This document shows positions 35,037 to 53,466 of a stretch of DNA of 64,000 nucleotides, in pieces (position 1 is the stretch's first letter; each line of letters opens with the position of its first letter). The stretch is from an uncultured Alphaproteobacteria bacterium (GTDB lineage: Bacteria; Electryoneota; RPQS01). The position numbers were made by a program, and so were the translations under genes. Below the pieces are notes generated by a model. That model worked only from the letters and a program-made list of their open reading frames with translations. It ran no database searches and was not told the DNA's origin. The stretch is from the NCBI GenBank assembly GCA_964587105.1, contig CAZPKG010000004.1, forward strand, positions 153,443 through 217,442, given 5' to 3'.

Positions 35037-35189
35037 AGTGCTTATCTCAAAATAATATTGAGTCGTTGTTTTCGCCGAGCGTGGGCGTCCCCGCCCCGCC
35101 GGAATCCGAAAAATCTCGGTTGTTGTGCCAAAAATGTCGCGTACGCCATCAAAGTTTGGGGGATTGAGTTATTTCAAGATAAGCTCATA

Positions 35190-35210
35190 GTGGAGACGGA
35201 GGGAATCGAA
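35190..35210 (-). repeat. att core copy 1: tmRNA-like 3'-end fragment (one mismatch to copies 2 and 3)
   Basis: Minus strand TTCGATTCCCTCCGTCTCCAC = T-loop, T-stem 3' half, acceptor strand CGTCTCC and discriminator A; no T-stem 5' half upstream. Confidence 0.75.
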
Positions 35211-35507
35211 TAATCAATCACTTTTCGCAAACCAGCTCTAACAGATAAAGAAACAGCCCATTAACAGGGGCTGTCCATACTCAGAAACTCTTCGCAAGTT
35301 CAAAGTTTACCATCGGTGCTTCTGGCGATATAGCACATATTTGCACACTGGAAGCGTCTACTTGAAAGTAGCTTCGGACAGGCTCTTTCACCCAATCCGG
35401 ATCGGTGTTTGACAGGCCAATTTGATTTGCATACATCCTTGAGCCTGCAATTGTAATTCTGATCATTTAATGTAACATGCTCTAACGGAGAACAGCGCGA
35501 ATCGGAA

Positions 35508-37139
35508 TCAGTCAGGTGACAGCCACTGAAAAAGTTCATCGGCATTTGTCAGTAATCTTAGACTGTCAATCCGCTGGAGGTCCCGCATTGTTCTCGCCAG
35601 CTCGGATATGCCGGCAAGGTACTCTCCTGACTTGTTCGGAGGGTACATAGCAAGAACAACGAGTTGGACTTTGTTTCTCGCATCGGCGTCGACTATCCCT
35701 TGTCTTGGAATACCTGCCGCCCAATATACAGCACTAAGACCACTGACAACAGCGTGGGGCACGGCAAGACCCTCGTTCAGGAAGGTTGACATTTCAGCTT
35801 CGCGTGTTAGCACGGCTTCAACAGAAGCCGGCTGGACTTCACTTGGACAGCGCTTAACTATTAACTCGTGCAACTCTCTGATTGCGGTCGCTTTCGTCAT
35901 AGGGTGGTCCCAGACCGCCGCAGCCACAAAACGGGGTAGGCTACTCAATGGCCTGTCCACGCGATCTAATTCCACCCTAATCTCGTTTGTTGCGGTGTCG
36001 CCAATTTCTGGAATTCGCTCATCAAGAACTACAATGCGATACCCCGATCCTGCTTCGATAAGTTTTTCTACATTATTCTTAGGTGTGAATACACGCTGCA
36101 TTAAGGTCCTTTTGTTGGGTCTTCCAATCACAACATGACCTACTCGGTAGTCTCGAGCAAACCTCAAAATTGTCTCGACGACGTCCTCACCTTTCAAAGT
36201 GAAGACCATCGCCCCAAGTTGATTGGCAAGCGTGAGTGCATCAGCCAACACTCGCTGTTTGCCAGCATCAATCTTCAAGGGTGTTTCTTTGGGTGTCTGA
36301 ACATGTACAGCATACCAACGCCTGTTTAAGCGACCTGCTAATCGTGATCCGTATCGAAGTAAATTCGCGTTATTAGGGCCTGATGCACTTAGACAAACGA
36401 CAATTTGGTCAGGCGGTACAGCTGCACTATCATCATGCTGTTCGCGTCGTTTGAAATCAATTTGTGAAGCTGTCTCTCGCAAAGTCAGCTCACGCAATTG
36501 CTCAAGCCGTGGAGCTTGAAAATAGTTTTGAGATGCAAGCGAAACACGCTCTTGCGGGTAGATTTTCCCTTTCTCCAGGCGTTTTACAAGATCCTCCGGA
36601 GAAAGATCCACGTTGACGATTTCATCCGCCTGCTTCAAGACGAGATCGGGCACTCGCTCTGCAACTCTCACATTGACAAGCCCCTCAACTGTATTGTACA
36701 GACTCTCCAGGTGTTGGACATTCATGGTTGAGATTACATGGATGCCCGCAGCAAGCAACTCCTCAACATCCATGTAGCGCTTTGAGTTCTTGCTGTCCGG
36801 AGGATTTGTGTGTGCGAGTTCGTCCACCAAAACAATTCGTGGTTTCCTGGACAGTATCGCGTCAGTATTCATTTCCTCGAGCGTTATGCCGCGGTAGGTT
36901 ACTTGCTGACGGGGCACTATTTCAAGGCCTTCCAATAATGCGGCGGTGTCTCCGCGTCCGTGCGTTTCGACAAGCCCAACAACGACATCTACACCTTCTT
37001 GCTTCAAGCGGTGTCCCTCTTGCAACATGAGATAGGTTTTCCCGACGCCCGGAGCATATCCGAGATAGACTTTCAAGCGGCCACGCTCAGAACGCCGAAT
37101 GAGATCGAGGAAACTTGATACTTTGCGATCAGGCGCCAT
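35508..37139 (-). CDS. kdpD: KdpD N-terminal sensor domain + USP domain fused to a PTS EIIA (EIIA-Ntr/Fru-like) domain; no kinase domain
   Basis: RGRLKVYLGYAPGVGKTYLML, LVDELAHTN, STMNVQHLESL; USP segment (IVVCLS...WYAVHV); C-terminal VLTREAEMSTFLNEGLAVPHA EIIA motif. Confidence 0.85.
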   Translation of the reverse strand: MAPDRKVSSFLDLIRRSERGRLKVYLGYAPGVGKTYLMLQEGHRLKQEGVDVVVGLVETHGRGDTAALLEGLEIVPRQQVTYRGITLEEMNTDAILSRKPRIVLVDELAHTNPPDSKNSKRYMDVEELLAAGIHVISTMNVQHLESLYNTVEGLVNVRVAERVPDLVLKQADEIVNVDLSPEDLVKRLEKGKIYPQERVSLASQNYFQAPRLEQLRELTLRETASQIDFKRREQHDDSAAVPPDQIVVCLSASGPNNANLLRYGSRLAGRLNRRWYAVHVQTPKETPLKIDAGKQRVLADALTLANQLGAMVFTLKGEDVVETILRFARDYRVGHVVIGRPNKRTLMQRVFTPKNNVEKLIEAGSGYRIVVLDERIPEIGDTATNEIRVELDRVDRPLSSLPRFVAAAVWDHPMTKATAIRELHELIVKRCPSEVQPASVEAVLTREAEMSTFLNEGLAVPHAVVSGLSAVYWAAGIPRQGIVDADARNKVQLVVLAMYPPNKSGEYLAGISELARTMRDLQRIDSLRLLTNADELFQWLSPD

Positions 37140-37144
37140 GTACT

Positions 37145-37738
37145 TTAGCTTTCCTTGTCCAGGGCAATGTTTAGAACAAGAACATTTACTCCCGGTTCTC
37201 CAAGAAGTTCAAGCGAACGTGAATCTGTTGCGTCATCAATTAGTTGAAAGACGCGTTCTAATGAAATCTCACGTGTTTTCGCAACGCGGGGAGCTTGGAG
37301 TCTTGCATTCTCTATGCTAATATGAGGATCAAGTCCGCTTGCCGAAGCTGTGACTGCATCGGCGGGGATTGGGACGCCGTGCGGGACACCGTTCAGCTCG
37401 CGATAGGCCATGACACGTTGGGCTACTTGGTTAATCAGCGTTTGCGAAAGCGGCCCCAAGTTTGTGCCGCCAGATGAGGTCGCGTCGTATCCATTTCCAG
37501 CCGCGGATGGGCGCGAATGAAAGTAGCGAACATCAGTAAAAGACTGACCTATTAGTGAAGAGCCCACGACCATGCCGGATGAATTTGTGACTAAACTGCC
37601 GTTTGCTTGCGACGGAAAAAGCGCTTGCGCAATCCCCCACACAACCAACGGATAAACGCCGCACAAGATGACTGTAAGCAATATCGTCGCGAAGAGTGCG
37701 GGCCGTAGCTCTTGAAAAAGTACTTTCATTTTAGACAA
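37145..37738 (-). CDS. kdpC: K+-transporting ATPase subunit C
   Basis: [38 protein letters not shown]. Confidence 0.95.
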
Positions 37739-39755
37739 TCTTCAAAGCTGTGATAAGCATATCAATTGCCTTGATACCAATAAAAGGAACGACGATTCCG
37801 CCAAGTCCGTAGATTAACAGATTGCGACGCAAAATAGATCCGGCACTTGCAGGGCGGAATTCGACGCCTCGCAAAGCCAGTGGGGTCAAAGCGATAATGA
37901 TCAGCGCATTAAAGATGACCGCGCTCATAATCGCACTGTACGGGCTATCAAGACGCATAACATTGAGCGGCGCAATTACAGCAAACGTACCCATCAGCAT
38001 TGCCGGAATAATTGCGAAGTATTTTGCGACGTCGTTCGCAATGCTGAACGTAGTTAATGCCCCTCGTGTAATTAGAAGTTGCTTGCCGGTCTCGACGACT
38101 TCTATAAGCTTCGTGGGATTGGAGTCAAGATCGATCATATTACCCGCTTCTTTAGCAGCTTGAGTACCGGTGTTCATGGCTACGCCGACGTCGGCTTGCG
38201 CAAGCGCTGGAGCATCGTTAGTGCCATCACCGGTCATTGCAACGAGATGCCCCTTTGCCTGTTCGCTTCGAATCAACTCCAGCTTGTCTTCAGGTGTTGC
38301 CTCTGCGAGATAATCATCAACCCCGGCTTCCTTGGCAATCGTCGCGGCGGTAAGCGGGTTGTCACCCGTGATCATAACAGTCTTGATTCCCATCGCGCGA
38401 AGTCGCGCGAAACGGTCTGGAAGACCTGTTTTCACAATATCCCTCAAGTAAATGACACCCAAGACTTTTTTGTCCTTGGCAACGACAATCGGCGTTCCGC
38501 CCGCTGTCGCGATTTTCTGCACTGAGTCCTCAACTTCGTTTGGAAATGAGCTGTCAATATATGAGCGAACAGCATCTGCCGCGCCCTTGCGAATCTCCAG
38601 CCTATGGGCGTTCAGACCGCTCATGCGTGTCTTGGCGGTAAACGGTACAAACTCTGCACCCTGAAGTTCTTTGATACTTCTCTCGCGGAAGCCATGTTCC
38701 TTGGCAAGTACAACAATGCTGCGACCCTCTGGAGTTTCGTCTGCAAGTGATGCAAGCTGGGCCGCATCTACCAAGTCGCGGATGTTCACGCCGGGCGCAG
38801 GAATGAACTCCGTAGCCTGACGGTTGCCTAATGTAATTGTACCGGTCTTATCAAGCAAGAGAACGTCCACATCGCCCGCAGCTTCAACAGAGCGACCGCT
38901 CATGGCCAACACGTTTTTTCGTGAAAGGCGGTCGATTCCGGCAATACCGATAGCGCTTAACAAACCGCCAATCGTTGTCGGAATCAGACACACCAGAAGC
39001 GAAACAAGCACAGTAATCGAGAAGCTGACTCCTGAATAGACGCCAAAGGGCTTCAATGTTACAATTACTAACAGGAATATCAGTGTCAATGCTGACAAGA
39101 GAATTGTCAACGCGATCTCATTAGGCGTCTTTTGACGGCGTGCACCTTCTACAAGCGCAATCATTTTATCCATCAGGCTTTCACCGGGATTGGCTGAAAC
39201 GCGCACGAGAATAGAATCAGAAAGTACAACAGTTCCGCCAGTAACCGAACTGCGATCTCCGCCTGATTCGCGCACGACAGGTGCGGACTCACCTGTGATC
39301 GCCGATTCGTTGACCATCGCGGCACCCTCGATGACTTCACCGTCAGCCGGGATCAGTTCACCGGCGCTAACTCGCACAACGTCATCTTTGCATAAAGAGT
39401 CGGACGACACAAGATGATAGCTGCCGTTGCTCATGAGTTTGTTGGCATTCGTTTGTGAGCGGGACTTCCGCAAGGCATCGGCTTGCGCTTTACCGCGACT
39501 TTCTGCCAGCGATTCAGCGAAGTTTGAGAAAAACACGGTGATCCATAACCAGGCCGCAATCTGAAGCGAGAAGGATAGCGGTTCGTCTTGCGTCCAGCCC
39601 AGAATCGGAGCAAGAGAGGTAATAAACGCGCCGATCAACGTAACGAACATCACCGGATTGCGCAACTGCTCGTTGGGATTGAGCTTGCGTAAGGCGGCCC
39701 TCAACGCCGGGACGAGCACGGAACGATCAAGAATGCTTATAGCTTTGGTGCTCAT
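37731..39755 (-). CDS. kdpB: K+-transporting ATPase subunit B
   Basis: [45 protein letters not shown]. Confidence 0.97.
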
Positions 39756-39758
39756 GGA

Positions 39759-41498
39759 TCAAAAGAGTAGCGTGGAATGAGTCATCAGGAATTGTTCAAG
39801 CACTGGCCCTAAGGCGAGCACAGGCAGAAACGTCAATGCGCCGATAATTAGCACAGTTCCGGTTAAGAGCACTGTAAACGTCACACCGGACACAGGGAAA
39901 CTGCCCGCACCTTCGGCAACGAGTCTCTTGGAAGCAAGTTGTCCCGCAATCGACATTACCGGTACGATAATCATGAAGCGGCCAACGAGCATCGCGATAC
40001 CCATAAGAGTATCGTACCACGGAAAGTTTGTTCCAAGACCGGCAAAAGCGCTGCCGTTGTTTCCTGTTGCCGATGAAAAAGCGTACAGCACTTCGCTAAG
40101 TCCGTGCGGACCGCTATTGTTGAGGGATGCTGTTCCCCAATGCGAGACAACGCCCCAAGCGGTAAACCCAAGGATTGAAATCACGGGAACAAGAATACCA
40201 ATGGCCGCAAGCTTTACTTCAGTTGCGCCAATCTTTTTACCCAAATACTCCGGTGTGCGACCGACCATCAACCCGGCAATGAAAATTGCGAGGATGACGT
40301 AAAGGAGCATACCGTACAGCCCTGCGCCGACTCCACCAAAGATGACTTCTCCAATTTGCATATTAAACAAGGGAACGAAACCGCCCATGGGTGTCATCGA
40401 ATCGTGCATCGAGTTGACCGCACCGCAAGATGCATCGGTGGTGATCGTAGAAAAGAGTGCGCTGTTAAAGATTCCGAAACGCGTTTCCTTGCCTTCCATG
40501 TTTCCATCGGCTGCGGCGACACCCAACGCCGTGAGACGCGGATTGCCCGTTGATTCTGCATTCCATGCTACTAACGTGCCGCCGACAAACATTACAGCCA
40601 TTGTGACCCAAACCGCCCAACCGTGTCCCTGTGACTTAACCATGCGGCCAAGATAATACGTCAGTCCTGCCGGGATGAGAAAGATTGAAAGCAGTTGAAA
40701 GAAGTTGGTCAACGGAGTGGGATTCTCATAGGGATGAGCCGCGTTTGCGTTCATAAACCCGCCGCCGTTTGTGCCAAGCATTTTAATTGCGACCTGTGAG
40801 GCCATCGGACCTTGCGCAATTATCTGTGTGGGCGAAAGCGTGCTATCTAACGCCGCGTCTTGCATGATGTTGACTATCTCATAGGATTTGAAATTCTGGA
40901 TCATACCCTGACTGACAAGGAATAGCGCAAATACTAAGCTGATCGGAAGCAATACATATAAGGTGACCCGTGTAAGATCGACCCAAAAGTTACCAATCGT
41001 CTTGGCCGATGCGCGTGCGATTCCTCGCACCAGCGCAGCGGCGATCGCGATTCCGACCGCAGCGGAAGTGAAATTATGAAAAGTCAAGCCGACCATTTGC
41101 GAGAAATACGACATTGTCCCCTCCCCACCATAACTTTGCCAGTTCGTGTTCGTCGTAAAACTCGCCGCCGTATTAAACGTCAAGTGGCTCGACAATGGTC
41201 CAAAGTGTTGTGGATTTAGCGGTAATATATGCTGCATACGGAGAATCGTATATGTGAGCAGCATCCCAAAGAAACTGAACGTCAGAATCGAGAATGTATA
41301 TGACTTCCAGTCTTGCTCCACCGTCGGATCTACTCGCAGCAACTTGTATGTCAGTCGCTCTATTCCTCCGAACACAGGTTCAATCCCCACGCGTGCTTCA
41401 AAGTTAAGCACACGATAGAGATAGACCCCCATCGGCTTAGTTAGCAGCGCTAATATTCCCAGGTATAGGGAAAGTTGAATCCAACCTCCAATGCCCAT
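39759..41498 (-). CDS. kdpA: K+-transporting ATPase subunit A
   Basis: SFTTNTNWQSYGGE, LGTNGGGF, ASCGAVNSMHDS, GGVGAG, NNGSAFAG. Confidence 0.97.
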   Translation of the reverse strand: MGIGGWIQLSLYLGILALLTKPMGVYLYRVLNFEARVGIEPVFGGIERLTYKLLRVDPTVEQDWKSYTFSILTFSFFGMLLTYTILRMQHILPLNPQHFGPLSSHLTFNTAASFTTNTNWQSYGGEGTMSYFSQMVGLTFHNFTSAAVGIAIAAALVRGIARASAKTIGNFWVDLTRVTLYVLLPISLVFALFLVSQGMIQNFKSYEIVNIMQDAALDSTLSPTQIIAQGPMASQVAIKMLGTNGGGFMNANAAHPYENPTPLTNFFQLLSIFLIPAGLTYYLGRMVKSQGHGWAVWVTMAVMFVGGTLVAWNAESTGNPRLTALGVAAADGNMEGKETRFGIFNSALFSTITTDASCGAVNSMHDSMTPMGGFVPLFNMQIGEVIFGGVGAGLYGMLLYVILAIFIAGLMVGRTPEYLGKKIGATEVKLAAIGILVPVISILGFTAWGVVSHWGTASLNNSGPHGLSEVLYAFSSATGNNGSAFAGLGTNFPWYDTLMGIAMLVGRFMIIVPVMSIAGQLASKRLVAEGAGSFPVSGVTFTVLLTGTVLIIGALTFLPVLALGPVLEQFLMTHSTLLF

Positions 41499-41505
41499 TG
41501 TTGCC

Positions 41506-41589
41506 TCAGAATTTCTCTGGTCGAATCATTGCGACGAGCAGATAGATCATCAAGCCAATCGCGAGAGCACCAAGTACGATGTCGGCCAT
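41506..41589 (-). CDS. kdpF: KdpF small membrane subunit (27 aa; not in the ORF track)
   Basis: Manual translation MADIVLGALAIGLMIYLLVAMIRPEKF; ends 7 bp before the kdpA start. Confidence 0.9.
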   Translation of the reverse strand: MADIVLGALAIGLMIYLLVAMIRPEKF

Positions 41590-41591
41590 GT

Positions 41592-41675
41592 TTAGAGTCC
41601 GTCACAAAGTTGAGTGAGTTTGCCCATTAAGGCAAAGAAGGCCGCGGTACCAATCAAGTAAATGAAATCAACCAT
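41592..41675 (-). CDS. Small hydrophobic peptide (27 aa) upstream of kdpF
   Basis: Manual translation MVDFIYLIGTAAFFALMGKLTQLCDGL; single TM helix; 2-bp gap to kdpF. Confidence 0.65.
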   Translation of the reverse strand: MVDFIYLIGTAAFFALMGKLTQLCDGL

Positions 41676-41693
41676 CTCTACACTTTATCTTTC

Positions 41694-43508
41694 CTATTGA
41701 ACACACTTTTGTAAAGTAATACTGAACACTGACCCTTTGCCAAGTTCGCTCTTAACTCGTATGGATCCGCCGTGAGCTTCCACGATTTCGCGTGCGATAG
41801 CCAGTCCAAGTCCAGCGCCGTCAGTGGCTACCTTGGATTTGCCGCGATAGAAGCGATCAAAAATGTGAGGCAGTTCTTCTTTCGGTATGCCCGGCCCTTG
41901 ATCTGCAATTGATATGTCTATGGTCATTTCATTGCAGATTGCTGAAAGGGTCACCTCACCTCCCGCCTGGCTGAACCTTAAGGCATTCGACAGCAGATTA
42001 CTGAATACGTGGGAAATACGCGCTTCGTTTGCAAATACTTCAGGCAAATCCTCAGGTACATCAAGCACTAACTTAACCCCCAGATGCTGATATGCGCTTT
42101 GCGAAACTGCGACAGCACGGTCGATAAGTTTGTAAGTGGACACCGGCACAAGATCGAGCTGCGTCTTTCCTGCTTTATAGCGGGCAACGTCTAACAATTC
42201 ATTAACGATGCCAAACAAGCGCTCAGCATCATCACGAGCTGCGGTTAACAATTCAGCTTGTTTGTCATTGAGTTGACCGACTCTTTCGTCGTGCAGCATG
42301 TGCAGAGCCATTCGGACTGATGTTAAAGGAGTCTTTAACTCGTGTGAAACAGTCGACACCAGGTCATTTTCCAATTCAGACACGCGGCGCAACCGCGTGA
42401 CATCGACGTAGACTAGGATAATCCCGACCGGCAGCCCTTCTGAATCTCTTATGGGCAGTACGCGCGGTAGAAAGAACTTTTCCTTTCCTTTGACAAACGC
42501 TTGCACGACTCGTTCAGATTCTTTGTCCCCAACGAATTGGCCGGAGGTCTCTACATGCAGAGACTTGTGCCACTCGGGCGATGTGTCGTATATGCTCCCA
42601 CCTGGCCGGACCCCTACGATTCTACGTGCGGCCGCGTTGGCAAGCTCTACCGTTGCATCCGGAGCCATGACAATAACTGCATCTGGCAAGCTGTCGAGGA
42701 CCAGTTGCGCGCTTTGCTGACTTCGAGCCAGTTTTGCTTGATCTCCCTGCTTGAGCAACCTGAGTTCTGCGGCCATGTCATTGAACGCTTCCATGAGCTG
42801 ACCCACTTCATCGCGAATTCTGGGCTGGAGTACAAGGTTTAGATTGCCAGATTGAATTTCCCGTATTGATTGAGTTAGAATTTTCAGGGGTTGAAGAACT
42901 GCTCGTCCAGTAACTAAGATCAGGATCAATGCTAATAGAATTCCGGCTATTATCAGGACATAAGTGAATTGCTTTGCTTCTTGCGCACGGCGCTGCGCTT
43001 CTCCATCGACGGCAATCATGTTGGACAAGTTCATGTCCGAAATGTTCTGAATGACTAATTGAAGTCGCTCGACAGCAGGCCTAAACAGTCCATGATAACG
43101 TGCGAGAGTAGTCGAATCACCAAGTGTACCGCCGGTTAGTTGTAGCGCCTCTGCTTGGACTTTTTGCCAGAACTCAATGACAGCTTTGACTGAATCTCTT
43201 TCACCGGATAAAGTGATGTTCCCCTGTTCAAGCTTAAGCATTTGATTAAACTGTTGTGTCGCGGCTTCAATTCTCATGCTGTCAAGGCGCTGGCCGAGTA
43301 CTGTGACATCCTGCACTTCATCGTGAAAATCGCTGAGAGCCTTCTTCAACCCTTCGCAATAGACAATGCTGTCATAGTTTTCCCGTAGAATTTTGGTCAG
43401 AGCATTCCCGTAACTGTTTACAACGCTAGTACCGATTGCGGCTACGAGAACCGCGACGGCAAGAAGTGCCGAAAAACCTACAATGAGTTTTGCTTTAAGG
43501 CTGAACAT
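41694..43508 (-). CDS. Sensor histidine kinase (TM, periplasmic helical domain, TM, HAMP, PAS, HisKA, HATPase) of the kdp cluster
   Basis: Start placed at MFSLK (ATG 43508 after AAGGA); VSHELKTPLTS; NLLSNALRF; DQGPGI; GAGLGLAIA. Confidence 0.9.
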   Translation of the reverse strand: MFSLKAKLIVGFSALLAVAVLVAAIGTSVVNSYGNALTKILRENYDSIVYCEGLKKALSDFHDEVQDVTVLGQRLDSMRIEAATQQFNQMLKLEQGNITLSGERDSVKAVIEFWQKVQAEALQLTGGTLGDSTTLARYHGLFRPAVERLQLVIQNISDMNLSNMIAVDGEAQRRAQEAKQFTYVLIIAGILLALILILVTGRAVLQPLKILTQSIREIQSGNLNLVLQPRIRDEVGQLMEAFNDMAAELRLLKQGDQAKLARSQQSAQLVLDSLPDAVIVMAPDATVELANAAARRIVGVRPGGSIYDTSPEWHKSLHVETSGQFVGDKESERVVQAFVKGKEKFFLPRVLPIRDSEGLPVGIILVYVDVTRLRRVSELENDLVSTVSHELKTPLTSVRMALHMLHDERVGQLNDKQAELLTAARDDAERLFGIVNELLDVARYKAGKTQLDLVPVSTYKLIDRAVAVSQSAYQHLGVKLVLDVPEDLPEVFANEARISHVFSNLLSNALRFSQAGGEVTLSAICNEMTIDISIADQGPGIPKEELPHIFDRFYRGKSKVATDGAGLGLAIAREIVEAHGGSIRVKSELGKGSVFSITLQKCVQ

Positions 43509-43521
43509 GCTTTCCTTGTAT

Positions 43522-43537
43522 TGCGAACGAGATACCA
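43522..43537 (-). promoter_or_regulatory. Candidate sigma54 -24/-12 promoter for the HK-kdpFABC-kdpD' transcript
   Basis: Minus strand TGGTATCTCGTTCGCA (GG-N10-GC). The implied leader is only a few nt, which weakens the call. Confidence 0.4.
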
Positions 43538-43584
43538 ACTGCTTCGTCAACTCGGCCGCCTTGTAAAAGATGAAGTTAAGAACC

Positions 43585-43616
43585 AAAAACGCCTCTCCGG
43601 TAACGGAAAGGCGTTT
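43585..43616 (-). terminator. Intrinsic terminator after the sigma54-dependent regulator
   Basis: Minus strand AAACGCCTTTCCG ttac CGGAGAGGCG TTTTT. Confidence 0.75.
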
Positions 43617-43663
43617 CAAGAATCAATGACAAATCGGCAAAGCATTGAAATTTGAAATGCATA

Positions 43664-44992: not shown

Positions 44993-45067
44993 GACTGTTG
45001 TCGTAGGGGTTTGTACTCCGGAATATAACGAATTTCTGCGAATACATCCTCGAAGGCTCGATCGAAC

Positions 45068-45132
45068 AACAAAACACCCTTGCTAAGTTCATGCTTAACA
45101 AGGGTGTAATAGTGGAGACGGCGGGAATCGAA
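45068..45132 (-). repeat. att copy 2: 21-bp tmRNA-like 3' fragment (45112-45132) plus terminator-like hairpin (45075-45106)
   Basis: The 65 bp match 52979-53043 with 3 mismatches. Confidence 0.85.
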
Positions 45133-45248
45133 AGAGCCGTCGCATTTCGAACATGCCTTGTAAGACAACTATAATCAACAAGTAAGCTACCTGCGTGGCT
45201 CTTCTCGATTAACTGTTAAGTCTATATTTTAGCATCGAACAGCAACCG

Positions 45249-45270
45249 AAAACAGGACAAAAACAGGACA
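45249..45270 (+). repeat. Tandem 11-bp direct repeat AAAACAGGACA x2; candidate integrase arm-type sites
   Basis: Exact repeat about 120 bp inside the att core. Confidence 0.6.
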
Positions 45271-45367
45271 GTGAAATTAGGGGTGCATGGGGACAAAGTT
45301 ACCCGGGGGGTCGCAAGGGCCGTAAGGCATAACCAGGGATATTTGTGCTGTGATTAGATCTCCAAGT

Positions 45368-46273
45368 TCACTCCTTGAGAGTTGTTGGTGCGCTCGATTT
45401 CTCAATCTGCACAGTACAATGCTCGATGCCGAATTGACATCGGAACAAACTTAACGCAGCCTCGAGAATCAAGTGCGGTTCGGTTCCTTCATCGCAAATG
45501 AGGTGCACCGTCAACACGGGTTCGCCGCTCGCAATCTGCCAGACATGGAGGTCGTGAAACCCCGTTACATTCGGTAACCGTTCAATTTCGTATCCAATCT
45601 CTTGAAGATTCCATGCCACGGGAGTTCCTTCAAGCAGAATATGGATTGACTCCCAAACGAGTTTCCACGTGCTAAACAGAATGAGGATTCCAATAAGGAT
45701 GGATACAACGGGATCAATCCAATACCCTACACCGGCGAGCACTGCTAACCCGGCAGCGATAACACTAATCGATCCAGCTCCGTCAGCTACTAAGTGCAGA
45801 AAGGCCGAGCGGACATTGAGATCGTCATGTCGGTGCTTAGACAACATCCAAGCGCTTCCGAGGTTCGCGAGTAGCCCGAGGACCGCTACGGGTAGCATCA
45901 CCTTTGCATCCACTGGCTGCGGATTTCCAATTCGTTGAAAAGCTGCATACATGATGAAACCCACAACACCCCAGAGTACAAGGCCGTTCAGCAAACCAGA
46001 CAGTACTTCTAAGCGGCCCATTCCATAAGTCTTACTCATGGTTGGAGGACGAGCGGAAATGTGTGCAACCCACAAAGCCGCACTCAGCGCGACAACATCC
46101 GAAAGCATGTGTCCGGCATCGGCCAGCAACGCCAGCGATCCGCTAATCCAACCTCCAACGAGCTCAATTAGGAGAAAGGTGCCATTGAAGATCAGCGCCC
46201 ATCGCAGCGCCCGGATCTTGTTGTAGCGATCCGGAGCGCGCGCGTGGAGTTCATTGTGGAGGATACTAACCAT
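45368..46273 (-). CDS. Cation diffusion facilitator (CzcD/ZitB-like Zn/Co/Cd transporter)
   Basis: SLALLADAGHMLSD, GRLEVL, NVRSAFLHLVAD, DPVVS, HDLHVWQI, HCTVQIE; the start overlaps the upstream RND stop. Confidence 0.9.
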   Translation of the reverse strand: MVSILHNELHARAPDRYNKIRALRWALIFNGTFLLIELVGGWISGSLALLADAGHMLSDVVALSAALWVAHISARPPTMSKTYGMGRLEVLSGLLNGLVLWGVVGFIMYAAFQRIGNPQPVDAKVMLPVAVLGLLANLGSAWMLSKHRHDDLNVRSAFLHLVADGAGSISVIAAGLAVLAGVGYWIDPVVSILIGILILFSTWKLVWESIHILLEGTPVAWNLQEIGYEIERLPNVTGFHDLHVWQIASGEPVLTVHLICDEGTEPHLILEAALSLFRCQFGIEHCTVQIEKSSAPTTLKE

Positions 46274-49200
46274 GATGCCGGTGCTCCGCTTCGACGACTT
46301 CCTCAAGAATGGACTCCTCAGCCTTTCGCTTGGCTCCGAATTTCCAATATAAGGCGGGTAGAACGACCATGTTAAGCGCTGTTGATGTCAGAAGACCGCC
46401 CAAAATGACAATTGCCATCGGCGTCTGAATCTCCTTACCTGGTTGCCCGCCACCCAATGCTAATGGAAGCAGTGCTAATCCGGCGCAAAGAGCCGTCATT
46501 AGAATGGGGTTCATTCGCTCCATACTGCCACGGATGATCGCGCTACGGGCGGACATCCCCTCCTTGTCAATCAGATCATGGAAATGGGCAATCATCAGAA
46601 TACCGTTTCTGGCTGCAATTCCGAACAATGTCACAAAGCCAACCAACGCCGCAATGGAGACAATACCGCTGGTGAACTTGATGGCGAACACCCCGCCGAT
46701 TAGCGCAAGTGGCAGGTTGACCATGACCAGAAATGCATCACGAAACGTTCCGAACTCCATGTAGAGTAGAACGAGAATTGCACCCAACGACAGGAGTGAA
46801 AGCAACAGGATGACTCGACTCGCGGCCTCCGCGCTTTCGAACTGTCCGCCGTACGAAATGAAGTATCCGTCGGGCATCTTCACATTTGCCGATACCTTCG
46901 TTCTAACCTCTTCGACCACGCTTCCAAGATCGCGTCCTGCGATATTCGACTGCACCACGATCTTTCGACTTACATTTTCTCTGCTGATCGAGTTTGGTCC
47001 GCTTGAGCGATACACTGTTGCCATCTCATTCAGCGGCACTTGCGGCCCCGCCGGTGTCGCGAAGAGACTGGTGCGAATCAGTTCGTCATCCTTCCGTGCG
47101 TCTTCAGGAAATCTAACAACAAGATCAAAGGGAAGCTGGCCTTCCAATACCTGTCCCACAACCTCGCCGTTGAATGCCGTCTCAATGTTCTCAGCGAGAT
47201 CGGCGACTTGCACACCATAGACCGCCATCGCATCGCGGTTCATCTCGACGCGAAGTTGGGGCACGTCCACCTGAGGCTCTACGGCCAAGTCCACCAGACC
47301 ATCGACAGTCTGCATTTGCGCCTTTACTTGTTGGGCAATATTCCGAAGCTCATAGAGGTTGCTTCCGAATATCTTTACGGCCAGCGCGGCCTGCGTTCCG
47401 CTCAGCATGTGATCAATCCGGTGCGAAAGCGGCTGACCGATACTGATGATAGCGCCGGGTACGTCGGTAAGCAATTCTCGCAGCTCATGGAAGACTTCTT
47501 CCTTGCGGAATCCCTCCGGACTGAGCCGGACCTCCAGTTCAGTTTGATTGCTTCCGAAGGCATGTTCATCCAACTCGCCTCGGCCCGTTCGTCTGGCCAC
47601 CGACAGCACCGCAGGATGTGTCATTAACTTTTGCTCAACCAATTCTCCAATATCTGTAGATTCCTGCAGCGACGTTCCCGGTGGTGTGATGCAGATCACT
47701 GTGGCGGATCCTTCGTTAAACTCAGGCAGGAACGATCGGCCCAACTGAGTGTACACGACAAGAGTTATCGCGATTAAGCCCGCAGAAAACGCGATGACCC
47801 AGTTGCCTCGTTTTAGAGCCCATTCCAAAGCTGGCCGGTAGCCCGTCTTAAGTTTACGTACAACCCATGTTTCGTGATGTGCTGACTTCTGCTTCAATGC
47901 GGGCAGCAGGTAGAGGCTGAGTGCCGGTACGATAGTTACTGCAACCATGAGTGAAGCGAACACCGCGATCACGAAGGCAAAACCAAGCGGCAACAGCAAT
48001 CGGCCTTCAATGCCTGACATGAAGAACAGTGGCGCAAATACGGCGATAATAATGAACGTTGCAACAACCATTGGCTGCCGTATTTCGTTGGATGCCGCGA
48101 AAATGACTATCAATGATGGCCGCTGCTTTTCCTCCGGTAATGCCTTGTTCTCTCGGAGTCTCCTAAAGACGTTTTCCACGTAGATGATGGCGTCGTCAAC
48201 CAGCACGCCAACAGCGATAGCCATTCCTCCAAGCGTCATAGTGTTCACGGTCAACCCCAACCAGTACATCGCAAGTATTGCGATAATCAACGACAAAGGA
48301 ATAGAAACCAGACTGATGAATGTCGTGCGCATGTTTGCTAGGAAGAGGAGCAGGATAATCGTAACCAATATCGCCCCGTCACGCAGTGCTTCAACGACAT
48401 TATGGATACTCACATCGATGAAGTCCGCTTGCCGGAATACATGATTGTTGAGTTCCACGTCAGCTGGTAGTATCGGTTTCATTTCCTCGATCAATGCGTC
48501 GAGTCGCTCTGTGAGTTCCAGCGTGTTGGCATTAGGTTGCTTCTGAATGGACAGGACAACCGCATCGCGGCCGCTGATCGAAGATGTTCCGAGCACGGTT
48601 CCAGAACCGACCTTGACATCAGCCACGTTCTCGACAAGTACCGGACTTCCATCCCGAACTGTCACCACAGCTCGCTTTAAGTCTTCAAGCTCTTCAATTC
48701 TCCCAAGTCCGCGTATCAGGTATTCGTTTCCACTTGCCACAAAAAAACCACCTGTCGAATTCAAATTTGCCTTGCTCACGGCTTCCTTAAGCTCTTCCAG
48801 GCTGATCTGGTAGGCGGCTAATCTCTCCGGGCTTGCAAGGACTTGATACTGCTTCCGTTCACCGCCAATTGCGATGACTTGCGAGACTCCCGATATGGCA
48901 AGCAATCGCCTTCTCAAGATATTGTCTGCGAAGGACCGCAATTCCATCGCTGGCAGCGAATCACTCGACACCCCAACGAGCATGATCTCACCCATCAGAG
49001 AGGAAACAGGAGCCATCATGGGCGGATCCATTCCCGGTGGCAACAGGCTGAGAACCGATTGCAGTTTCTCCGCCACGATTTGTCTTGCTTGGAACACATC
49101 CGTGCCCCATTCGAATTCAATCCAAATAACAGCAAGGCCGGTGGCGAGCGACGAGCGCACGCGGCGAACTCCGGACGCACCATTCATGGCCGTTTCAATT

Positions 49201-49403
49201 GGGAAGGCAACCAATGTCTCCACTTCTTCAGGCGCCATGCCGTGTGCGTCTGCAAGGATGGTCACGGTTGATGCCGTTAAGTCGGGGAAGACATCAACAG
49301 GCAATCTGAAGGTTACAAAATAACCCAAGAACAGAATCAGCACTGAAGCGAGCACAACGATGAAGCGATTCTCGAGCGAGAACCTGATTATCTTTTCAAA
49401 CAT
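46266..49403 (-). CDS. CusA/CzcA-family heavy-metal RND permease
   Basis: LPVDVFPDL, GVLVDDAIIYVEN, GFVTLFGIAARNGI, RMNPILMTAL; His-rich C-terminus. Confidence 0.93.
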   Translation of the reverse strand: MFEKIIRFSLENRFIVVLASVLILFLGYFVTFRLPVDVFPDLTASTVTILADAHGMAPEEVETLVAFPIETAMNGASGVRRVRSSLATGLAVIWIEFEWGTDVFQARQIVAEKLQSVLSLLPPGMDPPMMAPVSSLMGEIMLVGVSSDSLPAMELRSFADNILRRRLLAISGVSQVIAIGGERKQYQVLASPERLAAYQISLEELKEAVSKANLNSTGGFFVASGNEYLIRGLGRIEELEDLKRAVVTVRDGSPVLVENVADVKVGSGTVLGTSSISGRDAVVLSIQKQPNANTLELTERLDALIEEMKPILPADVELNNHVFRQADFIDVSIHNVVEALRDGAILVTIILLLFLANMRTTFISLVSIPLSLIIAILAMYWLGLTVNTMTLGGMAIAVGVLVDDAIIYVENVFRRLRENKALPEEKQRPSLIVIFAASNEIRQPMVVATFIIIAVFAPLFFMSGIEGRLLLPLGFAFVIAVFASLMVAVTIVPALSLYLLPALKQKSAHHETWVVRKLKTGYRPALEWALKRGNWVIAFSAGLIAITLVVYTQLGRSFLPEFNEGSATVICITPPGTSLQESTDIGELVEQKLMTHPAVLSVARRTGRGELDEHAFGSNQTELEVRLSPEGFRKEEVFHELRELLTDVPGAIISIGQPLSHRIDHMLSGTQAALAVKIFGSNLYELRNIAQQVKAQMQTVDGLVDLAVEPQVDVPQLRVEMNRDAMAVYGVQVADLAENIETAFNGEVVGQVLEGQLPFDLVVRFPEDARKDDELIRTSLFATPAGPQVPLNEMATVYRSSGPNSISRENVSRKIVVQSNIAGRDLGSVVEEVRTKVSANVKMPDGYFISYGGQFESAEAASRVILLLSLLSLGAILVLLYMEFGTFRDAFLVMVNLPLALIGGVFAIKFTSGIVSIAALVGFVTLFGIAARNGILMIAHFHDLIDKEGMSARSAIIRGSMERMNPILMTALCAGLALLPLALGGGQPGKEIQTPMAIVILGGLLTSTALNMVVLPALYWKFGAKRKAEESILEEVVEAEHRHHG

Positions 49404-49414
49404 TGATTTGCTCC

Positions 49415-51076
49415 TTAGTGTCCGTGACCGGCATGACCTGCATCGGCGGCGCTAATCTTCAATGATGCAAGTCGGACCTTGTATGCACCAATGCTCACAA
49501 CACGCTCGCTTGCATTTAGCCCGCTAATGACTTCGACGTATCCTTCATCCTTTGCGCCAGTCTCCACAACTCGTCGGGCAAACTCCTCTCCTCCGACCTG
49601 TACATAGACTACAGATGTACCATCCTCATCGAGAACTGACGATTCGGGAACCGCCAGTGCTTCCCGCGACGATCGGGTCTTTAGATACACCTGCGCATAG
49701 CTGCCGGGGCGGAAAAGCGAATTAGAGTTATTGAGTTCGAAAATCACTGGAACGCGTCGCGTCACCGGATCAAGCAAAGTACTCACGGTGACAAGTCTGC
49801 CTCCAAGACTGGACACCCGGTAGATCTCGTTGGAACCACTCAAGGAAAATGTGGCATCGTCCACTTGATCCAGTCGGTCGGATTCTGAAACCGGGACTTG
49901 TACTTCCAGCCAAATCCGAGATGGATTAATGATGTTGAAGAGATGCTCCCCCATCACAACGTGCTGACCATAACGCAAATGAATGTCCGTGATTACTCCA
50001 CTGGCCGGAGCACGCAGGTGAAAGTGCTCTCCTTCAGAGAGCATCTCGTCTATGTCTGAGTCCAGTCCGCCAAGCGTGCCTCTTACGCGACTTCGCTTAT
50101 TCTCCAAGTCCAGTCTGGCTTCTTCCTTGCGTTTAGCCGAAACCGCTCCTTCATCCGCGAGCCGGCTGACTCGCTCGTACTCAGCCTTAGCCAGCCTGTA
50201 ATCATTCAGCAACTGCGTCCATCCACTTTCCGGGCCGCCTGACGGTGCAACGCGAGCCAGCACTTCGCCTTTGGAAACTTGCTGCCCCGGCCGAACGATT
50301 CCGTGTTGAGGATCCGGCACTAAGACTCCGTCAAACGGAGCAAATACTTCCGCTTCACCGACACCTGCCGCCTTGATTTCGCCAAGTGCACGAATATTGT
50401 CAGATATGGTTCGACGTTCAACAGGGCGAGATGCAAACTCAACCTGCCATTGCTGCTCTTTTAGAAAATTCACAATCTCTTCGGAAGATCCATTTGCAGA
50501 GCCTTCGTGCCCGGATGATTCGGCGTGTGCTTCACCATCGTCGTGGCCATGCTCTTCACCTTCCGCATGAGCTGCATGATCGTGACCGGCGTGAGCTTCA
50601 CCTTCTGTAGCAAACACGTCAACGTCGTCGAAAACGACACGCTGGATGCGCCCCTCTCGTGTCAGACTAAATACCATCTGATACTCACCTGCGGCGGGAG
50701 CTGTTACATCTAAGTCAAATATTCCCGGACGCGCGGGGCCGGCGGCATCCGCTCTTTGCACTTCCCGATCACGTTGCATGAATTGCAAAGTCAGTGAACC
50801 GGCTCCGACTGGCTTGTTTGTGGCCAAGTCCGTGACATGCGCCAGCACTTCTGTTTCCTGCCCGCCGAGCATTTTCGTCAACTCGACGAAGACTTCAAGG
50901 CTATCTTGCCACACCGTGAAGGACAGCGCCTCGTCGCCGTGAGCATGACCAGCGTGCTCTGCACCGCTCTCTTCGTTGTGGACATTCTGATCGGTGTCTG
51001 TCTTGGACTTACAGCCGAAAATTACAAGCGTGGCTACTAATGACGACACCGTGATCAATGAAGGGTATTTTTTCAT
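49415..51076 (-). CDS. CusB/CzcB-family periplasmic adaptor lipoprotein with His-rich segments
   Basis: Lipobox IFGC; HAGHAHGD and HAGHDHAAHAEGEEHGHDDGEAH tracts; MFP motifs (APFDG, APASGVI, LFRPGSYA, LAVPESSV). Confidence 0.9.
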   Translation of the reverse strand: MKKYPSLITVSSLVATLVIFGCKSKTDTDQNVHNEESGAEHAGHAHGDEALSFTVWQDSLEVFVELTKMLGGQETEVLAHVTDLATNKPVGAGSLTLQFMQRDREVQRADAAGPARPGIFDLDVTAPAAGEYQMVFSLTREGRIQRVVFDDVDVFATEGEAHAGHDHAAHAEGEEHGHDDGEAHAESSGHEGSANGSSEEIVNFLKEQQWQVEFASRPVERRTISDNIRALGEIKAAGVGEAEVFAPFDGVLVPDPQHGIVRPGQQVSKGEVLARVAPSGGPESGWTQLLNDYRLAKAEYERVSRLADEGAVSAKRKEEARLDLENKRSRVRGTLGGLDSDIDEMLSEGEHFHLRAPASGVITDIHLRYGQHVVMGEHLFNIINPSRIWLEVQVPVSESDRLDQVDDATFSLSGSNEIYRVSSLGGRLVTVSTLLDPVTRRVPVIFELNNSNSLFRPGSYAQVYLKTRSSREALAVPESSVLDEDGTSVVYVQVGGEEFARRVVETGAKDEGYVEVISGLNASERVVSIGAYKVRLASLKISAADAGHAGHGH

Positions 51077-51078
51077 GG

Positions 51079-52323
51079 TTAGTTCTCCAGGGGTTCAAGA
51101 CCAGCCACCCGGCGCATTTCGGCGCGGGCCAGGGCCAGTGAGTTTCTCAATCTTAGAGCTGCATCCTGTGCCTCGATGCCGGTACGCAACGCATCCACCA
51201 ATTCCAGCGCACTCATCTCGCCCTCCAAGTACAACCGCACTCCACGCTGCATGTTAACGTTGGCGCTGTCTTCCAGCGAGCCATTCAATGAGAAGTTTAT
51301 CTGCTCGGCAAGCTGAAGTTGTCTGAAAGCTGATCGAACTTGCTGTTCCACAAGTTGTCGCTGACTCCTGTGCTGAATCTCGGCCTGCGCAAGCTCCGAT
51401 CTTGCGACATTTGTTTCGCTTCTACGTTGGCCCCACAATGGGATTTCCAGCTCGCCTTCCACATAGAGTCCGCCGGGACCGGGATCCATAGTCTTGTCGC
51501 CAATTCCAAAACTCATGTCCGGAAATTGACTCCAGCGTGCTTGACTAAGGGCCTTTTGTGCGGCACCGAGTGACTTTTCAGAACGGACGAGTTCTGCTCG
51601 ATGTTGTAGCGCATAGCTCACCGCTTCGTCTTCAGATTTGAACAAAGTTGACGGCGGTTCAGTAAGCTCTATCGTCTGAAAACTCTCAGGCGAAAGCCCC
51701 GTCAAGTGAATCAATTCGGACAGGGCGTTCGCAACCTCTTGCTGGAGCTCCTGTTTGTGATTCTGAAGCTGTATCTTCTCCAACACGAATCTCTGCTCAT
51801 CGTAAGGGGCGATGTCTCCAAGTTCGCGACGAGCTGCGGTCGCTTTCGACAGATGCTCTGACTGCATCAGCACGCTATCCATTAGTTCGCTTTGACGTTG
51901 GAAGCGATCGTATTCATAAGCTTGAGTCAGCACTCGTACAATGAGCTCGCGCTTCGCTTCGACATATTCGGCCTGAGCCGCTTCATAAGCTGACTTGGTC
52001 GAACCACGCTTTGATGCCTGTGACCAGAGAAAGCCCAGGCTCTGCCGCACTCCTATGATGCGCTCGGTAGTTCCGGCGTTATCATTCAGGGATTCTTGCG
52101 ATCCGAACATTGAGGGATTGGGGAAAGCTCTGCTGCCCGTGTATGCTGAACGGGCACGAGATAAATTCGTTTGTGCCTCGGCCAATACGGGTGATGTAGA
52201 GTCGAGAGATGCGATTATCTGCTGAAGCGATAGTGCATGGGGTTGTGCAGCGGAAGGTGAGAAAGGGACTGTAACAAAAAACGCTCCAAGCAGGAGCGTC
52301 AACCAAGTTAGTTGAGATGGCAT
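51079..52323 (-). CDS. TolC/CzcC-family outer-membrane efflux protein
   Basis: Signal peptide; FPNPS; two OEP helical repeats; YLEGEMSALELVDA. Confidence 0.88.
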   Translation of the reverse strand: MPSQLTWLTLLLGAFFVTVPFSPSAAQPHALSLQQIIASLDSTSPVLAEAQTNLSRARSAYTGSRAFPNPSMFGSQESLNDNAGTTERIIGVRQSLGFLWSQASKRGSTKSAYEAAQAEYVEAKRELIVRVLTQAYEYDRFQRQSELMDSVLMQSEHLSKATAARRELGDIAPYDEQRFVLEKIQLQNHKQELQQEVANALSELIHLTGLSPESFQTIELTEPPSTLFKSEDEAVSYALQHRAELVRSEKSLGAAQKALSQARWSQFPDMSFGIGDKTMDPGPGGLYVEGELEIPLWGQRRSETNVARSELAQAEIQHRSQRQLVEQQVRSAFRQLQLAEQINFSLNGSLEDSANVNMQRGVRLYLEGEMSALELVDALRTGIEAQDAALRLRNSLALARAEMRRVAGLEPLEN

Positions 52324-52390
52324 TCCTGTACTCCAAGTTCACATGAGTGTTAGCGCACCTTTTGAGGCGCGGAGTCATCCTATGGGTGAA

Positions 52391-52723
52391 TCAGGAGAAC
52401 AGTCGAGGAGGGCGTTCTATGGCAAGTAGGAAGGTCTCTAAGGTAGGGTTAACGTGGAAGTGCTCAGCCTTTGACACGGGCAAGTGGTGAGCATCATGCG
52501 ATGTTGTTAAGACGCCAATTACGACAGTGTGGCAAAAGCAGCCGCATTTGCAGTCATCGTGTTCTCCGCCTGCAGTCGATGAGGAGTGCTCATGCCCATC
52601 CTCGCAATCATGACCCATCGTCCGAACCAGCGGCGACGCGATGATTAGCAAGCTGAAGACGGTAAGACTGATGATTAGAAGTTGACTTTTCACAATATGG
52701 ACGGCATGTATACCCTTGAGCAT
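52391..52723 (-). CDS. Small exported/membrane His/Cys-rich protein leading the efflux operon (CzcI/DUF2946-like position)
   Basis: Hydrophobic N-terminus; GHDCEDGHEH...HDDCKCGCFCH; ends IERPPR. Start uncertain. Confidence 0.55.
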   Translation of the reverse strand: MLKGIHAVHIVKSQLLIISLTVFSLLIIASPLVRTMGHDCEDGHEHSSSTAGGEHDDCKCGCFCHTVVIGVLTTSHDAHHLPVSKAEHFHVNPTLETFLLAIERPPRLFS

Positions 52724-52978
52724 CAAACTGCAATATACGCCTTTTTGTTCCGTGAAACAATAACTGGGCCGGGATAACACCTGACACATAAGCCACGTCT
52801 ACCTATCGGTCTACCGTCCTCATCTGATAGAGACGGCGGGATGTTTTCTCGCGTTCGCTACAGAAATCACTCGCCATAACTATATATATTACATTGCTAT
52901 AACTCTTAGCTTCTGTCCGGTCTTTCGATCGATGTACTGTTTTTGTCCTGTAAAATTTGTCACTATTTGCTGCCAGAT

Positions 52979-53043
52979 AACAAAACACCCTTGCTAAGTT
53001 CATACTTAACAAGGGTGCAATTGTGGAGACGGCGGGAATCGAA
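52979..53043 (-). repeat. att copy 3: 21-bp tmRNA-like 3' fragment (53023-53043) plus terminator-like hairpin (52986-53017)
   Basis: Minus strand TTCGATTCCCGCCGTCTCCAC; 62/65 identity with 45068-45132. Confidence 0.85.
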
Positions 53044-53138
53044 TTATTAGTCCACTTCTGGTCGTGTACTCTAACAGAAAAAAGAAACAGCCCCTTACAG
53101 GGGATGTCTTCGTCTCAGGATTCTACATAAGTTCAATA

Positions 53139-53180
53139 TTTAGCACGTAACTTCATGCGGATTTAGCACGTTTTTAGCAC
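53139..53180 (+). repeat. Three TTTAGCAC direct repeats (53139, 53162, 53173); candidate arm-type sites
   Basis: The last two are spaced 11 bp apart; related TAGCAC/TTGCAC pair at 35331/35341 in the homologous arm of island C. Confidence 0.55.
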
Positions 53181-53466
53181 ACCTGAATTGTTCTAAGGAA
53201 ACCTTCGCTCGCGCGATTCAAAATATGAATTCGATAAGTCGTGTTCAGAGCCAAATCGAGTGTACTATGACTTCCCGTCGCCATCTGCGTCAATACCCCC
53301 ATGATGTGAACCGCACTTGTGGAATTATCTGATCGACAAGTCAACCTTGTCCCGAACCAATTGATCAAGAGAAAGTGGGTTGACGTTGTTATTATACGAA
53401 GTACATCGCAATCACGACAGTTTTGGGACAGATTGGCACCACGTTGCACGCACCCGACACGAATAA

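Follow-up and report, generated by a model that had tools for sequence, protein, structure and literature searches.

Tandem genomic islands at ssrA, the gene for transfer-messenger RNA (tmRNA), have been described in Dehalococcoides, where the ssrA-specific genomic islands (ssrA-GIs) carry a 20-bp direct repeat and are inserted in the T-loop (McMurdie et al. 2011, PMC3146451). Their serine recombinase, DsiB, belongs to a six-gene integration module, all repeats lie at most 100 kb downstream of the intact ssrA, and some of the islands lack integration genes and were interpreted as cis-mobilizable elements (CIMEs) (PMC3146451). The CIME/accretion model, including the streptococcal ICESt1 family, has been reviewed (PMC5704250), islands that target tRNA and tmRNA genes have been catalogued by Islander/TIGER (PMC4383910), and the tycheposons of Prochlorococcus combine an integrase with a replication module (bioRxiv 10.1101/2020.12.28.424599). 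Here we describe a related arrangement in contig CAZPKG010000004.1 from an uncultured bacterium of the Fibrobacteres-Chlorobi-Bacteroidetes (FCB) group. In the 64-kb stretch analysed (hereafter the window), three copies of a tmRNA-like 3' end delimit a kdp operon for potassium uptake and a czc operon for heavy-metal efflux.

This array is a variant of the known tandem ssrA islands and CIMEs. We consider it probable, with a rough probability of 0.6, that the three repeats are the cores of attP-like attachment (att) units of ~220 nt, and that the kdp and czc modules are CIME-type islands without an integrase of their own, which accreted in tandem and were moved in trans. Like the Dehalococcoides ssrA-GIs, they are tandem islands with adaptive cargo and direct repeats of the last ~20 nt of ssrA that start in the T-loop, a conserved non-ssrA sequence stands just upstream of each repeat, and integrase-less islands occur. 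Unlike in Dehalococcoides, neither window island has an integration module, no ssrA was seen in the window or in the flanks of its relatives, and each repeat stands inside a ~220-nt unit that also contains two terminators and a set of phased tandem words. The open reading frames (ORFs) of the two segments encode no resolvase or recombinase domain of a DsiB-like module, and the only recombinase seen near an analogous site is a fragment of a tyrosine integrase in a relative (locus L103).

As in CIMEs, which have lost their integration and transfer genes, such genes are absent from both the kdp and the czc module, and the att sites at the two ends of each module (attL and attR in CIMEs) are kept in direct orientation. 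However, CIMEs are defined beside, or as descendants of, an integrative and conjugative or integrative and mobilizable element with a known integrase and with a protein gene or a tRNA gene as the target, whereas the array in the window has no known helper, belongs to an uncultured organism of the FCB group and uses a site that derives from tmRNA. Islander islands and tycheposons likewise integrate in tRNA or tmRNA genes, leave a displaced 3' fragment at the distal end, push older elements outward by successive integrations and leave degenerate remnants with partial tRNAs. They are known by an integrase inside the island and an intact target gene at one end, and neither was found in the window or in the ~10 kb beyond the equivalent of its right end in L091, the closest relative of its right flank. 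Two other hallmarks of Islander islands are present, as the direct repeat is identical to the 3' part of the target gene and the island is absent from the same locus in relatives.

Three junction units built on a tmRNA 3' end

The core repeat, GTGGAGACGG(A/C)GGGAATCGAA on the plus strand, starts at positions 35190, 45112 and 53023, as reported in the initial annotation, and has the same orientation in all three copies. None is expected by chance (0 in 100 dinucleotide shuffles), and the window contains no further copy with up to two mismatches. Read on the minus strand as TTCGATTCCC(G/T)CCGTCTCCAC, the core consists of the T-loop, the 3' strand of the T-stem and a 7-nt 3' acceptor strand with U70, followed by A73 and one C. 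The T-loop start, the U70 and the missing 5' half of the T-stem proposed earlier were found in all three copies, none of which has the 5' T-stem strand GCGGG upstream. Copy 1 has a G-to-T substitution that would disrupt the T-stem.

The exact 21-mer was searched in viral contigs with ARAGORN gene calls over the matches, and a 24-nt version of the core was searched against one genome per species. The viral contigs contained 49 loci with the 21-mer, which forms a tmRNA 3' end in 15 of them; every gene called over a match was a tmRNA, and the remaining matches are gene-less, some of them near contig ends (for example, both ends of 3300046660_000410). The genome search returned 37 loci, including 25 tmRNA 3' ends, one 3' end of tRNA-Ala(CGC) and 11 loci without a call. 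Thus, 40 of the 41 gene-overlapping matches from both searches are tmRNA genes, in agreement with the original description of the core as a tmRNA-like 3' end. In loci L058 and L066, full-length tmRNA genes (Rfam scores of 168 and 160 bits) run directly into the core and the T2 hairpin that follows it in the window, and their 5' end, GGGGACG, pairs with CGTCTCC via G3:U70. Because of this continuity and pairing, the core together with T2 represents the 3' end and terminator of the lineage's ssrA, and judged by these alignments the core originates from the tmRNA 3' end. The ssrA-derived part begins exactly at the T-loop, with every unit departing from ssrA just 5' of TTCGATT. A tRNA-Ala source of the core was rejected because core and T2 extend into the full tmRNA genes of L058 and L066. 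The single tRNA-Ala(CGC) match comes from a Polyangia metagenome-assembled genome (MAG; L073, 7462-7536), where the gene belongs to an array of 24 tRNA genes and has the 21-mer as its 3' end.

Alignment of the three window junctions with those of relatives showed that each 21-nt core is the centre of a composite unit of ~220 nt. In the tmRNA sense, its parts are two or three tandem words (10-11 nt apart), a GATGCTAAATATTGAACTT box, a terminator hairpin (T1), a spacer of 25-45 nt, the core and a second terminator hairpin (T2). The three units of the window are as follows.

35152-35354, minus strand: J1, with TGTGC words (~35329-35348), a GAACTT box, T1 (35251-35276), a spacer of 25 nt and core copy 1 (35190-35210), and without a T2 hairpin after the core
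45062-45280, minus strand: J2, with two copies of TGTCCTGTTTT (45249-45270), a GATGCTAAAATATAGACTT box, a hairpin of variant form, core copy 2 (45112-45132) and T2 (45074-45107)
52972-53189, minus strand: J3, with three copies of GTGCTAAA (~53139-53182), a GCTAAATATTGAACTT box, T1 (53091-53103), a spacer of 25 nt, core copy 3 (53023-53043) and T2 (52985-53018)

The 65-nt hairpin block that had been noted at copies 2 and 3 is identical at 62 of 65 positions (45068-45132 versus 52979-53043), and its hairpin, T2, is called as an intrinsic terminator on the minus strand. The arm said to be common to copies 1 and 3 proved to be real homology (29 of 40 positions identical without gaps) and reaches ~180 nt at 71% identity, with an alignment score ~10 standard deviations above shuffled sequences, but it begins 25 nt from the core and not 26. 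The second minus-strand terminator, T1, lies within this arm. The intrinsic-terminator calls for T1 and T2 are on the strand that encodes the module genes, and changes in the T2 stem are compensatory between genomes.

The tandem words start 135-141 nt from the core in 7 of 10 units, and their sequence varies from unit to unit (TGTGC, TGTCCTGTTTT, GTGCTAAA, TTGTTTT, GGTCTT, TTGTCAAAA and TGTGCCG). Taken individually, such words arose in 0, 2, 9, 28 and 35 of 2000 shuffles, with the J2 11-mer pair in none and the J3 word in nine. The units also have in common a G(A/G)AC motif 5-6 nt upstream of TTCGATT. By their placement, the tandem words show the pattern expected of arm-type sites and may be bound by a recombinase or a directionality factor (excisionase).

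A profile built from 10 units was used for an nhmmer scan of the window and of the loci L051-L105 from relatives. It recovered J1 (35354..35152), J2 and J3 with E values of 3e-27, 8e-56 and 2e-45, respectively; the only other full-length matches were at module boundaries in relatives, with no extra full unit elsewhere in the window or in the other loci of this set. Intact ssrA loci matched the profile over the core and T2 part only. A generic dispersed terminator repeat was rejected, as the scan gave no additional copies. A 16-mer from the arm box had 35 matches in viral contigs, none of which fitted the unit profile (E ≤ 1e-3) and which were treated as chance, and the unit had no match among plasmids.

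The kdp and czc modules and their locus

The segment between cores 1 and 2 (35211-45111) is occupied by a single complete kdp operon for a potassium pump with its own sigma-54 two-component regulators, bounded by J1 and J2. The segment between cores 2 and 3 (45133-53022), bounded by J2 and J3, contains czcCBA for metal efflux together with a cation diffusion facilitator (CDF) transporter and a small His/Cys-rich protein. All genes of both modules lie on the minus strand, co-oriented with the tmRNA fragments. The module genes and ScdA were assigned with Pfam, supplemented by translation in the czc module.

35508-44992, minus strand: kdp module
43664-44992, minus strand: sigma-54 response regulator
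41694-43619, minus strand: PAS/HAMP histidine kinase
39759-41498, minus strand: KdpA
37731-39755, minus strand: KdpB
37145-37738, minus strand: KdpC
35508-37139, minus strand: KdpD-sensor/Usp/EIIA protein
45368-52789, minus strand: czc module
52391-52789, minus strand: small His/Cys-rich protein
51079-52323, minus strand: outer-membrane factor
49415-51076, minus strand: membrane-fusion protein
46266-49403, minus strand: resistance-nodulation-division (RND) pump
45368-46306, minus strand: CDF transporter
52830-52951, no strand assigned: inner arm of the czc module near J3, with a partial core GAGACGGCGGGA at 52830-52841 and inverted TGTCC words CTGTTTTTGTCCTGT at 52937-52951 and CTGTCCGG at ~52913
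34274-34975, plus strand: ScdA/RIC-type di-iron protein, left backbone edge (L089 is collinear up to window position 34965)
53467-56393, minus strand: right backbone edge, with a 154-aa protein (53467-53931) and a tail-fibre-like Peptidase_S74 protein (53943-56393)

A narGHJI-cytochrome b-NarK-ScdA cluster, in which ScdA is the last gene, makes up the left flank, and the right flank (segment C) continues beyond the 154-aa and Peptidase_S74 genes with two unknown proteins and a giant protein. The closest homologue of the 154-aa protein (89% amino acid identity) was found on the Joint Genome Institute (JGI) contigs L088-L090, which are collinear with the window on both sides at 72-78% nucleotide identity (window 25313-34965 and 53468-63786, corresponding to 22-9646 and 10002-20464 in L089). 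Between ScdA and the 154-aa gene, these contigs have 346 bp where the window has 18.5 kb. Thus, the kdp-czc block is accessory DNA at this position, and the flank to its right belongs to the shared backbone; this empty site in relatives bears out the earlier proposal that the repeats delimit accessory DNA. No relative was found that carries kdp and czc at this position without the repeats: both are absent here, and kdp elsewhere is accompanied by repeats in three of four contexts. The three or more successive integrations proposed earlier were reduced to two demonstrable modules, since the DNA beyond copy 3 is not visibly a third island and keeps its collinearity with relatives in which kdp and czc are missing.

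The kdp module itself occurs in other genomic contexts. It is collinear at 70-77% nucleotide identity in L102, L105, L100 and L104, its neighbours differ in each of them, and the homology ends at the units. Units of the tmRNA type adjoin kdp in three of these four contexts, on both sides in L102 and L105.

L102: a perfect core with arm, T1 and T2 upstream of kdp; a decayed unit downstream
L105: a decayed unit upstream of kdp; a decayed unit downstream
L100: a decayed unit upstream of kdp; a tRNA-Ser-like 3' piece and a hairpin downstream

The units that precede kdp in L100 and L102 are homologues of J2, at 74.5% over 200 nt and 93% over 74 nt, respectively. L104 contains no core and only a box and a terminator. 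An independent Logan contig of 3.8 kb (SRR14271333) is 100% identical to the window across 38827-42654.

Several features of kdp loci were observed in addition. The last kdp gene encodes the N-terminal sensor of KdpD with Usp and PTS EIIA-2 domains and without a kinase domain, and a separate PAS/HAMP kinase and sigma-54 activator stand before kdpABC. This architecture is common in metagenomes, with at least 7999 matches at E ≤ 1e-30 among the best 8000 candidates scored. The tRNA-Ser-like piece 3' of kdp in L100 (11790-11880) comprises a variable arm, a T arm and the acceptor TCTCTCCG, is followed by a hairpin and represents a third kind of RNA-gene fragment at a module boundary. In L104 (9200-12750), kdp is followed by a ferredoxin-like gene, a small His/Cys-rich ORF and a gene for an outer-membrane efflux protein (OEP), an arrangement that resembles a czc-like module behind kdp in the order opposite to that of the window.

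A counterpart of the czc module was found next to an intact ssrA. In L066, the tmRNA gene is followed by T2, inverted TGTCC words, a partial core AGACGGCGGG and then the OEP, membrane-fusion and RND genes, and this arm is the same as that on the J3 side of the czc module in the window. Thus, a czc-like module sits at a genuine ssrA in at least one genome. The partial core, (A)GACGGCGGG(A), lies ~190 nt from T2 in the promoter-side arm of the efflux genes (window 52830-52841, L066 ~4150) and could be either an older, decayed att core or an additional core-type binding site.

Units of similar layout are based on another RNA gene. In L103, directly downstream of the orthologous ScdA gene, such a unit consists of two copies of TGTCCC, a tRNA-Lys(CUU) 3' half that runs from the anticodon loop onwards, a hairpin and two copies of TGTCCCG. 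This unit adjoins a tyrosine-integrase catalytic domain (PF00589) cut by an IS3 element, and the 346-bp gap of L089 holds the same tRNA-Lys piece. The initial annotation had drawn on tyrosine-integrase islands, which often target ssrA; the integrase fragment at this analogous site agrees with this, but no integrase or remnant of one lies in either window segment. The fragment (L103, 2610-4587) is a C-terminal catalytic domain of 168 aa truncated by an IS3-family insertion sequence, which recurs twice more in the 20-kb locus around an inverted pair of a tail-fibre-like gene and a 153-aa gene.

The tRNA-Lys(CUU) 3' half (anticodon loop to acceptor end) with a conserved hairpin, AAAGCCCTGC...GCAGGGCTTT, follows genes of the 154-aa family as well as ScdA in L103. 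These pieces, which have the layout of the tmRNA-type unit with another RNA gene, were located in L089 (10520-10640), L093 (10560-10660), L097/L098 (~10560-10650) and L103 (2290-2450), and no intact tRNA is present at any of them. In a Calditrichaceae MAG (L083, 3725-4420), a tRNA-Lys(CUU) gene on the ssrA strand precedes ssrA by 266 nt, and at least one relative thus has the RNA genes behind both kinds of units side by side. Full units of the tmRNA type that lack an ssrA were also found in a Calditrichaeota MAG (L080, 102-6863), after a gene for a DnaE2-like polymerase and before a CHAT/TPR gene, and in another MAG (L054, 1400-5272), after a histidine-kinase/sigma-54 regulator pair. The position of these two units suggests that there may be further module types.

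In the flanks, the 154-aa protein had no Pfam or PHROG match. Together with its Peptidase_S74 partner it forms a multi-copy gene pair, with at least three copies on one 3.36-Mb contig; one copy of the pair (L061, 6770-7995) lies 67 nt upstream of an intact tmRNA gene. The exact sequence of the tail-fibre-like protein has no database record. The giant ORF (59939-64000) runs off the end of the window; its relatives are 2393-2410 aa long, with copies 75-85% identical in L089 and L091. The giant protein has no Pfam domain, and a word-based homologue search found none scoring among the best 8000 candidates. On the left, the nar cluster has an unusual electron-transfer layout (28105-30518), in which a 438-aa fusion of NarI, the gamma subunit of nitrate reductase, with a Rieske domain precedes a cytochrome b/b6 gene, and this layout is kept in L088-L090. 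Pfam also identified sorting domains of the type IX secretion system (T9SS) among the window proteins, and these domains, together with the names of homologues, indicate a Calditrichota-like host within the FCB group.

Recombinase, target gene and competing explanations

ARAGORN and Rfam detected no tRNA or tmRNA gene in the whole 64 kb, and a permissive Rfam scan around copy 3 (E ≤ 10) found nothing. A hidden or degenerate ssrA to the right of copy 3, an idea raised by the similar spacing in L061, was therefore rejected; the unit profile also found no similarity of the arm to the tmRNA body, and the 154-aa family is multi-copy. The initial annotation had placed the intact ssrA to the right of the window. 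In L091, which is 85% identical at the amino acid level over the giant-protein segment used as a query, ~10 kb past the equivalent of the window's right end contains no tmRNA, tRNA, core or integrase, and the placement was not upheld over this distance. An integrase pseudogene in the window was rejected as well, as the best tblastn match to the relative's integrase domain had an E value of 0.3 and lies inside the giant gene.

According to the reading we favour, each unit would be a hybrid of the arms of adjacent att sites, with the final 21 nt of the tmRNA gene and the terminator of that gene as its base. A tyrosine-type site-specific recombinase encoded elsewhere would bind the core, with a second domain of this enzyme on the unit-specific tandem words ~137 nt upstream. 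Recombination between two cores in direct orientation would excise a module as a circle with one unit, and any resident unit, as well as the 3' end of ssrA, could then receive the circle. Successive insertions of this kind would have produced the order ScdA / J1 / kdp / J2 / czc / J3 / 154-aa gene. With T1 before and T2 after the core ending transcription, each module would be insulated wherever it is inserted. We infer that such a recombinase exists, that the tandem words serve it and that the system may be active at present, and the way in which a tmRNA-derived site reached the side of the 154-aa gene, remote from any ssrA seen, is likewise part of the inference.

Several observations weigh against this interpretation. 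No intact ssrA adjoins the array, either in the window or in the ~10 kb further covered by L091. Classical accretion occurs at the target gene. Recombinase domains are absent from the main ORFs of both modules and from those of the rest of the window (Pfam), and no integrase is present among the precomputed Pfam annotations of the genes beside the tmRNA-type units in L100, L102, L104 and L105. A J2-type unit is kept upstream of kdp with the module in the window, L100, L102 and L105, whereas a simple attP x attB exchange predicts that the upstream arm comes from the target. The cores flanking kdp in L100, L102 (downstream) and L105 have decayed with at least three mismatches, so many core copies are fossils. 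Finally, the base composition of the kdp and czc modules is the same as that of the backbone.

The array might instead be a classical one whose anchor, an intact ssrA on the minus strand, lies further to the right; segment C would then be a large, older third island that has ssrA at its far end and perhaps also the integrase that serves kdp and czc. This is in line with the distances of up to 100 kb from ssrA reached by Dehalococcoides arrays (PMC3146451) and with the 154-aa gene family, whose members have tRNA or tmRNA 3' pieces behind them in several genomes and a complete ssrA in L061. Moreover, J3 has an element-type arm, homologous to that of J1, attached to the 154-aa gene, and by the standard model something ssrA-proximal should then lie upstream. 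Nevertheless, we regard a distant ssrA as unlikely, because relatives collinear with segment C have it immediately next to ScdA, the junction in those relatives is a piece of the tRNA-Lys type and not of the tmRNA type, and L091 is devoid of a tmRNA, core or integrase in its ~10 kb. The proteins of segment C also have no phage or mobility signatures in Pfam and no PHROGs match; a prophage was rejected for the latter reason.

The absence of an integrase in or near every tmRNA-type unit examined, the decayed cores and the unit that moves with kdp, which simple core exchange does not predict, would also fit fossil att sites that now act as portable homology, with modules exchanged by RecA-dependent recombination or within larger fragments and no dedicated recombinase today. 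We find this quite improbable: the window cores are perfect or one base different while the arms have diverged to ~70%, and the unit-specific tandem words are kept paired at a set distance from the core, which suggests continued recognition by a protein; in addition, identities of only 70-95% over 220 nt make the units ill-suited to homologous recombination. The explanation that accounts least well for the data, and which we think very improbable, gives the units no role in mobility and makes them transcript-end elements, either double terminators or a tRNA-like 3'-UTR or processing signal after operons. It draws on the terminator calls for T1 and T2 on the coding strand and on the compensatory T2 changes. 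However, the core lacks the 5' T-stem strand and is placed after T1, so that much transcription would end before it; it has no Rfam match even at E ≤ 10 and decays in some genomes where the hairpins persist; and full units occur only at the boundaries of modules with variable location and not at other operon ends in the window and the relatives' loci.

A cassette system and the meaning of the array

A more far-reaching reading, which we put forward as a doubtful one, is that the ~220-nt units are the sites of an operon-scale cassette system, independent of the tmRNA gene and served in trans by a recombinase that the tandem words guide. Whole regulated operons (kdp, czc and possibly the dnaE2 or two-component modules of L080 and L054) would each carry one unit and would be shuffled between resident units scattered over Calditrichota-like chromosomes, with a parallel set of units based on the 3' half of tRNA-Lys(CUU). 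The likeness to integron cassettes is limited to promoter-independent cargo arranged head to tail, with one site each and the recombinase outside the cassettes. Unlike in integrons, there is no IntI, attI or folded site of the attC type, and the cargo consists of regulated operons of 8-10 kb with their own terminators, at sites derived from ssrA and equipped with terminator hairpins. If true, this system would be a functional analogue of the integron for insulated operons.

For the favoured reading of CIME-type islands moved in trans, the combination of the core, two terminators and phased words would provide a signature for detecting such modules in metagenomes. Standard island finders would overlook them, since such tools depend on an integrase and an intact target gene. 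Once the cognate recombinase has been identified, the units may serve as compact natural att sites with built-in transcriptional insulation. If this reading is true, an uncultured, Calditrichota-like lineage of the FCB group, of a kind known mostly as metagenome-assembled genomes, moves complete operons with their own regulation, for the uptake of potassium and the efflux of heavy metals, and does so without plasmids, phages or integrases encoded by the operons themselves.

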